Below, piece after piece: positions 4,069 to 4,853 of a stretch of 34,042 bases of DNA. The first letter of the stretch is position 1, and the number at the start of each line of letters is the position of its first letter. The position numbers and the translations under genes are program-made. Location of the stretch: the IMG/VR virus record IMGVR_UViG_2571042487_000002, positions 1-34,042 of that record; one strand, given 5' to 3'. The notes beneath the pieces are model-generated. The model did not search any database and was not told the origin of the DNA. It worked only from the letters and a program-made list of their open reading frames with translations. This stretch comes from a virus. Its lineage: Duplodnaviria > Heunggongvirae > Uroviricota > Caudoviricetes.

Positions 4069-4503
4069 ATGTTCGGTAAATTGTTCGGCAAGAAAGTCGC
4101 TTCTGCAAAAGTAGAGCTGAAAAAAGTTGAGAATCGCGATCTGATGGAGGCCATCATCGGTGGCTGTTTGTTGGTGTCTGCCGCTGATGGTGAAATCGAA
4201 AAAGAAGAAACAGCGAAACTTGATCAGCTTGTCCGCTCTAATCCGCGTCTTAGTCATTTTGGTAACGAAATTACTGCAACAATTACCCGCTTTACCGAGC
4301 AACTGGAAGCTGGCTTCCGTGTTGGTCGCATGAATATCCTTCGCGAAATTGAAGATATCAAAAACGATCCAAAAGAAGCGGAAGAAGTATTCGTTAACAT
4401 GCTGACAATTGCAGAAGCGGACGGTGAAATCGAGCCAGCAGAACACAAAGTACTGGAAGAAGTAGGCCGTCGTTTAGGTCTTCGTGTGGAAGATTATCTG
4501 TAA
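4069..4503 (+). CDS. tciA: TerB-like (tellurite-resistance TerB family) protein
   Basis: 144 aa with duplicated TerB-type motifs (VSAADGEIEKEE and IAEADGEIEPAE); position between tRNA genes matches P1 tciA. Confidence 0.75.
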   Translation: MFGKLFGKKVASAKVELKKVENRDLMEAIIGGCLLVSAADGEIEKEETAKLDQLVRSNPRLSHFGNEITATITRFTEQLEAGFRVGRMNILREIEDIKNDPKEAEEVFVNMLTIAEADGEIEPAEHKVLEEVGRRLGLRVEDYL

Positions 4504-4667
4504 TGGCAAGCAAGGCACGTATCGCAATCGCCATTGGTTTTCTCTTGCTGTCCGTGCTGGTGGATTTCACCAGCACAATCCTGTCAGTTTTATCGGACGG
4601 GGCGTTGGTGGCAGTAGCTGTAACATTGGTATGGCCGATATTAAAAACAGCTTCTAAGGATCAGTGA
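4503..4667 (+). CDS. Small hydrophobic membrane peptide (54 aa), translationally coupled
   Basis: TAATG overlap with the upstream stop; product MASKARIAIAIGFLLLSVLVDFTSTILSVLSDGALVAVAVTLVWPILKTASKDQ has one or two predicted TM helices. Not in the ORF track (<60 aa). Position corresponds to P1 tciB. Confidence 0.4.
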   Translation: MASKARIAIAIGFLLLSVLVDFTSTILSVLSDGALVAVAVTLVWPILKTASKDQ

Positions 4668-4774
4668 TGGGCTTCTGGGATTTTGCTGACAAGCATCCAA
4701 TTGTTCTCGTTGTCATTGCTGGCATAGTTGTAGGCGGTATTGCTGGCGTCATAGAAGCACTCAGGAAACAGTAA
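4667..4774 (+). CDS. Small hydrophobic membrane peptide (35 aa), translationally coupled
   Basis: TGATG overlap; product MGFWDFADKHPIVLVVIAGIVVGGIAGVIEALRKQ; ends 3 nt before the next tRNA. Position corresponds to P1 tciC. Confidence 0.4.
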   Translation: MGFWDFADKHPIVLVVIAGIVVGGIAGVIEALRKQ

Positions 4775-4777
4775 TCC

Positions 4778-4853
4778 GGCCCTTTAGCTCAGTGGTTAGA
4801 GCTGGCGACTCATAATCGCACGGTCACCGGTTCAAGTCCGGTAGGGGCCACCA
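4778..4853 (+). tRNA. tRNA with CAT anticodon, probably Ile2 (lysidine type; resembles enterobacterial ileX), Met not excluded
   Basis: Manual cloverleaf: acceptor GGCCCTT/AGGGGCC, D-arm GCTC-AGTGGTTA-GAGC, anticodon loop CTCATAA, T-arm ACCGG-TTCAAGT-CCGGT, encoded CCA. Confidence 0.85.

Follow-up and report, generated by a model that had tools for sequence, protein, structure and literature searches.

The closest described counterparts of the locus treated here are the tci genes in the ban operon of the phage-plasmids P1 and P7. These are named tciA, tciB and tciC in the P1 record (AF234172) and terB, upf69.4 and upf69.6 in the P7 record (AF503408), and they are followed by tRNA-Ile and ban. 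Eight regions vary among P1-like phage-plasmids, the tciABC segment being one of them, and about half of the members of one P1 subgroup have lost it (PMC9603915). All three genes are non-essential for P1 by CRISPR interference, their knock-down leaving plating unaffected (PMC10695390), and TciA peptides were found with liquid chromatography coupled to tandem mass spectrometry in virion preparations derived from P1 lysates (PMC9024508). Here, we compare these genes with their counterparts in a stretch of Caudoviricetes DNA of 34,042 nucleotides (nt) (IMG/VR record IMGVR_UViG_2571042487_000002; the whole stretch is referred to as the window). The window and P1/P7 share the gene order, the overlapping stop and start codons (TAATG and TGATG) and the flanking tRNA-Ile and ban genes. 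The window differs from P1 in its tciA allele, which is of the P7/D6 type, and from both P1 and P7 in the number of hairpin modules upstream.

Outside P1-like elements, the relatives of TciA include the TerB proteins of ter operons, and TerB reportedly interacts with TerC, which is an integral membrane protein (PMC11003894). TciA has its Pfam family, all-helical fold and paired DG-x5-E motifs in common with ter-operon TerB (KP-TerB, structure 2jxu; COG3793 protein, structure 2ou3). Unlike in the ter operon, there is no terC, terD, terE, terZ, terA or terF near tciA, and the putative partner of TciA is a DUF3927 peptide of 54 amino acids (aa). TerB-type domains are also anchored on the cytoplasmic side of the inner membrane in DjlA, which combines a transmembrane (TM) segment, a TerB-like domain and a J domain, and in YebE/DUF533, which combines a TM segment with a TerB-like domain. 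In these proteins anchor and domain form one polypeptide, whereas the phage module would consist of two coupled products, and TciA lacks the J domain of DjlA. Finally, STnc100-family RNAs, tRNAs and TerB (PF05099) co-occur near the Q/RusA region of Shiga toxin (Stx) and lambdoid prophages (bioRxiv 10.64898/2026.05.13.724894). Like this neighbourhood of small RNAs (PasA/PasC, PasD/STnc100), the window brings together TerB, tRNAs and an STnc100-like element; it does so inside a P1-type early operon, whereas the lambdoid neighbourhood lies in the late region, and its Rfam score falls just below the gathering threshold.

What the comparison adds to the existing annotation is that the locus falls into two units: a portable TerB-DUF3927 cassette (tciA and tciB) and an independent, tRNA-linked gene (tciC). 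Below, we describe the two units, discuss what the cassette might do, and summarize the regulatory and RNA elements that surround them.

A portable gene pair and a tRNA-linked gene

The segment at 3900-5200 of the window aligns over its full length with P7 at 98.6% identity and with P1 isolates at 96.9-99% (megablast against phage genomes). The window thus is a P1/P7-type phage-plasmid (Punavirus), its trio being the tciA-tciB-tciC segment of the ban operon. An earlier note on the window, written from its letters, had placed in a P1-like phage a TerB-family gene of 144 aa, joined by TAATG and TGATG overlaps to two hydrophobic micro-open reading frames (micro-ORFs) of 54 and 35 aa, the second ending 3 nt before a tRNA(CAU) gene. 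Every coordinate was reproduced from the sequence, the ORF list and ARAGORN, and the P1-like setting is borne out by the identities above; the overlaps are at 4501-4505 and 4665-4669, and the last spacer reads TCC, between 4774 and 4778. The description is a correct re-discovery, because all of its features are annotated in P1 and P7; the locus has been known and named since those genome records, and its description adds nothing new about P1. We regard the identity of the segment, together with its composite structure, as nearly certain.

P1, P7, SJ46 and D6 preserve all three frames and both overlaps, as do 62 of the 63 IMG/VR loci, which answers the check on micro-ORF conservation in P1-like phages that the earlier note had proposed. 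The single exception is locus L066, from an unrelated, non-P1 phage, which has tciA and tciB without tciC. The two internal starts are each preceded, inside the upstream gene, by a Shine-Dalgarno candidate (GGAAGA and TAAGGA), and the stop/start overlaps would give translational coupling.

The TerB-DUF3927 combination is best described as a self-contained, portable two-gene cassette that recurs in many unrelated phages, usually without a third ORF. In nearly all DUF3927 contexts sampled, a TerB gene lies immediately upstream, overlapping by 1-8 nt or directly abutting. Lambdoid LMessi and abundant Klebsiella prophages have the order Q antiterminator, TerB, DUF3927, holins; the N4-like phages Pollock and FSL SP-058 carry the pair in the early replication region; and P2-like Pectobacterium prophages carry it in a repressor-proximal early operon, ahead of RepB and GPA. 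The pair is also found in SSU5-like Cyrano and in E. marmotae plasmids. Six further Enterobacterales prophages, all found by a genomic locus scan with a narrow DUF3927 alignment, have a terminator hairpin that mostly stands directly 3' of DUF3927. Overall, the cassette reaches thousands of prophages and phage-plasmids of enterobacteria; the assembly collection indexes single DUF3927 sequences in 3,008 and 10,074 of its blocks. No tciC homologue follows TerB-DUF3927 in any non-P1/D6 context examined.

Several observations bear on how the cassette moves. In the P2-like Pectobacterium prophages (L081; 2900-3000 and 3600-3670), the pair and its terminator hairpin are enclosed by direct repeats of about 47 nt (CCCGGCACCTATTCGCAACCGTCTATC.GTGGGCG.TTACCAATAGG), a footprint of cassette insertion. 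At one and the same site, P1-like elements carry either of two exchangeable tciA alleles with 31% identity to each other: the window TciA is 100% identical to P7 TerB and thus differs in type from P1 TciA. The exchange covers window positions 3944-4533, ending about ten codons into tciB, and each allele has relatives of 85-90% identity in lambdoid or P2-like prophages. In a Pseudomonas prophage, a TerB protein 76% identical to TciA is followed, with a 4-nt overlap, by a non-homologous 67-aa ORF with a single TM segment. This Pseudomonas pair, the allele swap and the DUF3927 gene of 434-type phages (discussed below) all fit an exchangeable cassette with a small membrane partner.

tciC has a different distribution. 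Its product matches a single family, phrog_23152 (E 3e-27), and no Pfam or NCBIfam family, and in the window it is 100% identical to those of P1 and P7. Searches with tblastn of phage and plasmid collections yielded further alleles, so that sequences can be compared from P1 (MGFWDFADKHPIVLVVIAGIVVGGIAGVIEALRKQ), D6 (MDFWTYIDKNPGWSLLFLLVIVYGVEQVAKNLRRRK), pS143-4 (MDFWAFADKNPGWTFLFLLVVAYGVEQAAKALRGSGKKRKRN), Leclercia (MTIFDFMDRNPWWALIFLLVISEGLVATVKQLRKPKKKR) and Pantoea (MPFLAFAAEHPGLTIIYTLVVIYGFETVIKACRSDAKIKRRR). Six TciC alleles have in common the motif M-x-F-[WLF]-x-[FY]-x-[DA]-[KRE]-x-P, followed by a TM segment and a basic tail. D6 has an unannotated 36-aa homologue (L003 3269-3379) that overlaps tciB through TGATG and is followed by an unannotated tRNA(CAU) gene at 3389-3464. 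The complete 92.6-kb D6-like plasmid NZ_OY757108 contains tciC and tRNA-Ile, and tblastn over the whole plasmid found neither TerB nor DUF3927; its 43-aa TciC homologue, annotated as a protein by RefSeq, lies between an STnc100-like element and the tRNA-Ile gene. A total of 88 plasmid records carry tciC alleles 60-80% identical to that of D6. The homologues on Leclercia and Pantoea plasmids adjoin tRNA genes as well, with no tciA or tciB in the plasmid segments examined.

The homology between the tciAB-less plasmid and the window runs over 3904-4037 and 4767-5045, and therefore the leader and tciAB (with the tciC allele) form the variable segment. On these comparisons, tciC is an independent backbone gene. 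It encodes 35-43 aa with one hydrophobic segment and a basic tail, and in the phage-plasmids of the P1-like, D6-like and Leclercia groups it lies immediately 5' of tRNA(CAU). The position of the cassette in P1, P7 and D6 makes the tciB stop overlap the tciC start. The P1 annotation suggests that TciC is an accessory subunit of TciA/TciB, an idea we rejected since tciC occurs without tciAB and vice versa. Because each of the two units occurs without the other, the trio is not one functional unit, and on this point the earlier note, which had treated it as one, does not hold. For experimenters, this means that the two units should be deleted and expressed separately.

TciA, TciB and what the cassette might do

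TciA is a clear member of the TerB family, as the earlier note had proposed: it matches Pfam TerB (PF05099) over residues 27-143 with 54.3 bits (cut-off 24.4; E 2e-14), phrog_632 'tellurite resistance' with E 2e-63, and the solved Klebsiella TerB structure 2jxu with E 5e-7. Weak matches to NCBIfam DjlA (E 8e-6) and Pfam DUF533 (E 1e-4) were also obtained. The AlphaFold model (predicted local distance difference test score, 91.7) has six helices in an all-alpha TerB fold. Two D-G-x5-E motifs, D40-G41...E47 and D118-G119...E125, form a duplicated acidic signature whose residues D40, E47, D118 and E125 are invariant across homologues of 27-87% identity; the paired motifs are a proposed metal or ligand site. 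D24, E67, E93 and D96 are further invariant residues. The N-terminus of the phage subfamily is basic, with invariant G3, K8 and K9 followed by K19-x-E21-N-R/K-D24, and this region is unaligned in 2jxu.

TciB matches Pfam DUF3927 (PF13064) over its full length with 92.4 bits (cut-off 25; E 1.7e-26) and differs from its P7 homologue in one residue. The family comprises 427 clusters at 90% identity, every one of 50-90 aa, and residues D21, F22, T23, D32, G33 and L35 are invariant in 34 homologues. Both micro-ORF products are hydrophobic, in line with the earlier note (grand average of hydropathy, +1.24 for TciB and +1.03 for TciC). TciB has two hydrophobic stretches and is basic at both ends; the P7 record annotates its residues 1-39 as a signal peptide. 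On its 40-residue hydrophobic helix, D21, S28, D32 and L35 (i, i+7, i+11, i+14) form an invariant polar stripe along one face.

How might these proteins work? In the scenario we favor, the repressor C1 (with Bof) would close Pban and thereby keep the tci genes silent in the lysogen. ban itself stays silent in P1 lysogens as long as they have no operator mutation. Upon induction or infection, the tci genes would be transcribed early, together with tRNA-Asn, tRNA-Thr, tRNA-Ile2 and the ban helicase gene, and the overlapping stops and starts would couple translation of the three proteins. TciA, a presumably soluble, acidic six-helix TerB domain, would be held by TciB on the cytoplasmic side of the inner membrane, making the pair a split version of the membrane-tethered TerB architecture of DjlA, YebE/DUF533 and the TerB-TerC pair. 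We give this proposed TciA-TciB membrane complex an even chance of being real. Such a complex could serve as an accessory device of the lytic cycle that buffers membrane or divalent-cation stress, or that excludes pore-forming colicins and superinfecting phages, rather than as a tellurite-resistance determinant; this physiological role is tentative and rather unlikely to be correct as stated. TciC would be a separate small inner-membrane protein, probably with its N-terminus out and its C-terminus in. Its expression would be linked to that of the tRNA array, with the 3' end of its mRNA set where RNase P cuts, at 4778. Taken as a whole (identity, composite structure, membrane complex and lytic role), the favored statement could equally well turn out right or wrong.

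A number of observations weigh against this scenario. A literature search on the tci genes found no phenotype, TciA-TciB contact or membrane localization, in agreement with the earlier note, which had called the mechanism open. The AlphaFold2 model of TciB is a single continuous helix of 51 residues (2-52), not a hairpin. The N-terminus of the window TciA has no significant amphipathicity: residues 1-18 have a hydrophobic moment of 0.28, a value reached by 654 of 2,000 shuffles, so that an N-terminal membrane-targeting helix is unsupported for this allele (the P1-type allele has a moment of 0.51, reached by 137 of 2,000 shuffles). The 434-type phages encode DUF3927 without TerB, beside a different, 247-aa membrane protein, and therefore TciB does not strictly need TerB. 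The lambdoid cassette is located in the late operon, not in an early one, and in the window a terminator-like hairpin at 2492-2522 stands between Pban and the tci genes. Only one natural TerB-DUF3927 fusion was found, P0048 from a Joint Genome Institute (JGI) metagenome (171 aa, in-frame, N-terminus truncated), which may be a real fusion or an artefact of sequencing or gene calling. Fusions are absent among the DUF3927 representatives, of which only one exceeds 90 aa, a repetitive protein of 813 aa; we consider a single JGI sequence too thin for Rosetta-stone support of TciA-TciB contact. PADLOC, finally, reported no known defence system, its sole hit being a 13-bit match to PDC-S48, and membership in a defence system was rejected on this basis.

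Other readings of the locus start from the nature of the micro-ORFs. They could be untranslated, either as ORFs formed by chance or as RNA that spaces tciA from the tRNA: both are very short, TciC lacks a Pfam or NCBIfam family, and tciC of P1 and SJ46 differs by 13 changes with a dN/dS (ratio of non-synonymous to synonymous rates) of 0.64 and no third-position bias, a comparison that is uninformative as a coding test. The more divergent pair D6 and pS143-4, however, shows 17 synonymous and 13 non-synonymous differences over 21.7 and 77.3 sites, respectively, with codon-position counts of 8:5:17 and a synonymous excess at a binomial P of 3.7e-5. The tciC frame, start and hydrophobic-plus-basic build are moreover kept across alleles merely 26-44% identical, and RefSeq treats the 43-aa homologue as a protein. 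TciB belongs to a large Pfam family with invariant residues, and its dN/dS is about 0.3; for tciA, window and D6 differ by 19 synonymous and 3 non-synonymous changes (dN/dS about 0.04). The selection tests lead us to reject the chance-ORF reading, which is extremely improbable, and all three tci genes are protein-coding genes under purifying selection.

If the peptides are made, TciB and/or TciC might be membrane-active toxins of viroporin or holin type that cause depolarization, division arrest or a change in lysis timing, with TciA as regulator or antidote. The invariant polar stripe of TciB would suit this function, as would the similarity of TciC in size and build (one TM segment, basic tail) to type I toxin-like peptides, the position of the lambdoid cassette directly upstream of holin genes, the 434-type DUF3927 that lacks TerB and lies among other membrane proteins, and the P1 annotation, which lists 'inhibition of cell division' as a possibility. 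Yet P1 plating is unaffected by knock-down, the P1-, P2- and N4-like pairs are found in early or replication regions far from lysis genes, and the strong purifying selection on TciA argues for more than a dispensable antidote. We hold a toxin function to be rather unlikely. The names of the genes, and several papers, point in yet another direction, that of a lysogenic-conversion moron in which tciABC gives the host tellurite or colicin resistance. This finds little agreement with the gene content: terZ, terA, terC, terD, terE and terF are absent from every context examined (P1, P7, D6, SJ46, lambdoid, N4-, P2- and SSU5-like), and the operon has been called incomplete (PMC6799933). TciA is nonetheless a bona fide TerB-family protein, ter operons confer resistance to tellurite, pore-forming colicins and phages (as cited in PMC4319500 and PMC9603915), and the cassette behaves as a gain/loss module. 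Against a benefit to the lysogen, the P1-type tci genes should be off in that state because they lie behind the C1 operator, as the silence of ban would suggest, and the pair is carried by strictly lytic N4-like phages. A search of the literature found no experimental report of tellurite, colicin or phage resistance from tci genes, and we judge the moron reading improbable.

The scenario of a membrane-held TerB domain could also be extended beyond P1. The cassette, in every case arranged so that translation could be coupled, is found in three kinds of setting, namely the repressor-controlled early operon of P1-like elements, the repressor-proximal early operon of P2-like ones and the late operon downstream of Q in lambdoid ones. 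TerB-DUF3927 might thus be a widespread two-component membrane device, switched on during lytic growth of P1-, P2-, lambda-, N4- and SSU5-like phages, that protects membrane or ion balance or shuts out rivals, possibly countering membrane-depolarizing abortive-infection systems, while TciC would represent a new family of small membrane proteins that are linked to tRNA arrays and whose mRNA 3' ends are made by RNase P. This broad proposal is speculative and unlikely to hold in full. A tested role for TerB-DUF3927 would explain a common accessory module of phages. It would also put right the term 'tellurite resistance', a misleading label that is spreading through annotations.

Operator, RNA elements and tRNA genes around tciABC

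The features of the segment are collected in Table 1.

Table 1. Features of the tci segment and its surroundings (window positions)
Feature	Position	Strand	Description and source
Bivalent C1 operator (Oban a/b, former Op72)	2305..2332		Overlaps the Pban promoter; consensus match and P1/P7 annotation
Intrinsic-terminator-like hairpin with T8	2492..2522	+	Terminator scan; invariant in P1, P7, D6 and SJ46
Five paralogous long-stem hairpins	2697-2791, 3140-3232, 3358-3425, 3562-3661, 3841-3919		Folding z-scores -3.5 to -5.9
tRNA-Asn(GUU)	2988..3063	+	ARAGORN; Rfam tRNA, 74.5 bits
tRNA-Thr(UGU)	3066..3141	+	ARAGORN; Rfam tRNA, 72.9 bits
STnc100/PasD-like RNA element	3916..4031	+	Rfam RF02076, 42 bits (gathering score 47), E 7e-8; directly upstream of tciA
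tciA / terB	4069..4503	+	ATG 4069 to TAA 4503; 144 aa; P7-type allele; predicted cytoplasmic TerB-fold protein
tciB / upf69.4	4503..4667	+	ATG 4503 to TGA 4667; 54 aa; DUF3927 hydrophobic protein; TAATG overlap with tciA
tciC / upf69.6	4667..4774	+	ATG 4667 to TAA 4774; 35 aa; one hydrophobic segment; TGATG overlap with tciB
tRNA-Ile2 (anticodon CAU, ileX/ileY-like)	4778..4853	+	3 nt after the tciC stop; labelled tRNA-Met(CAT) by ARAGORN
ban	5140..6504	+	DnaB-type replicative helicase; distal operon gene; ORF list; annotated ban in P1 and P7

The earlier note had placed the genes in an early, repressor-controlled operon. This is supported by the C1 operator, which matches the consensus ATTGCTCTAATAAATTT without mismatch at 2305-2321 (+) and with 2 mismatches at 2316-2332 (-), and which the P1 and P7 records annotate as a bivalent C1 operator upstream of tRNA-Asn and tRNA-Thr that controls this transcription unit. 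What the window itself leaves less certain is the co-transcription of tciABC from Pban: since the terminator-like hairpin and about 1.5 kb of structured RNA elements intervene between operator and tciA, co-transcription would follow from the annotation and knowledge of P1 and P7 rather than from this sequence. The window contains ten C1-operator-like sites against 0.18 expected; the eight others, 17-mers with 1-3 mismatches at 12373, 15997, 16046, 18138, 29165, 33438, 33902 and 33985, probably mark other C1-controlled promoters of the P1-type genome.

The terminator-like hairpin is where the 'dicF-like region' of P1 (window 2440-2522) ends. Rfam gave no DicF match to the leader at E below 0.1, and the label is thus unsupported by the covariance model. 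Overlapping the hairpin, positions 2495-2620 have a weak Rfam match to tmRNA_permuted (26 bits, gathering score 47; E 0.003) and contain a tag-like frame, GCA AAC GAT GAT CTG ATG ATG GTA GCG GCC TAA, that reads ANDDLMMVAA*. We take this to resemble the E. coli SsrA tag, ANDENYALAA. The tag-like block does not vary among P1, P7, D6 and SJ46, even though D6 diverges directly 5' of it, save for a V-to-A change in P7 (ANDDLMMAAA); ARAGORN found no transfer-messenger RNA in the window.

The five long-stem hairpins share a conserved base (5' ACAACAGGTAAGGG, 3' CCCTTACCGTTGTG), followed by GGTGAATGC and a small hairpin, and the unit at 3140-3232 includes a T-arm-like GGGTTCGAATCCC. Their copy number varies among the window, P1, P7, D6 and SJ46. 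The P1 minus-strand genes plp ('putative lipoprotein') and upl (L002 1909-2478; window 3408-3943) sit exactly on this array, and their equivalents in the window are the ORFs 3266-3685(-) and 3686-3877(-). Given this turnover of units from one relative to another, the ORFs may have arisen by chance on top of structured RNA.

The STnc100-like element shares about 80% identity with parts of Stx and lambdoid phage genomes, and in the plasmids that lack tciAB it stands directly upstream of tciC. Shigella phage 75/02 Stx has its homologous segment immediately upstream of kil, a septation inhibitor gene. At the other end of the locus, a non-coding stretch (4855-5036) lies between tRNA-Ile and ban; unannotated segments with 81-88% identity to it occur in Stx2c phages, phiV10, TL-2011b and others, its counterpart in Stx2c_PV98-693 lying just downstream of a CI-like repressor ORF. 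The stretch has no Rfam match and an ordinary folding energy (z -0.04).

The description of the genes as 'wedged between tRNA genes' is loosely right: tRNA-Ile2 follows at once, whereas the tRNA-Asn/tRNA-Thr pair ends 928 nt upstream of tciA. The CAU tRNA is 89.5% identical to a chromosomal tRNA-Ile gene with a match in all 5,426 complete E. coli genomes, and it is therefore assigned as the AUA-reading tRNA-Ile2, not as a tRNA-Met; the P1 and P7 records likewise annotate it as tRNA-Ile. It has the acceptor pairs C4-G69 and C5-G68, which we take to be TilS determinants. The same arrays contain odd tRNA-like genes of 84-87 nt (L003 2317-2403, L094 540-626, L096 1027-1112 and L097 761-844), which ARAGORN labels tRNA-Ser(UGA) in D6 and pS143-4, 'tRNA-Val(AAC)' in Leclercia and 'tRNA-Stop(UUA)' in Pantoea. 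The Pantoea gene, directly before the tciC homologue, possibly encodes an ochre-suppressor-like tRNA.

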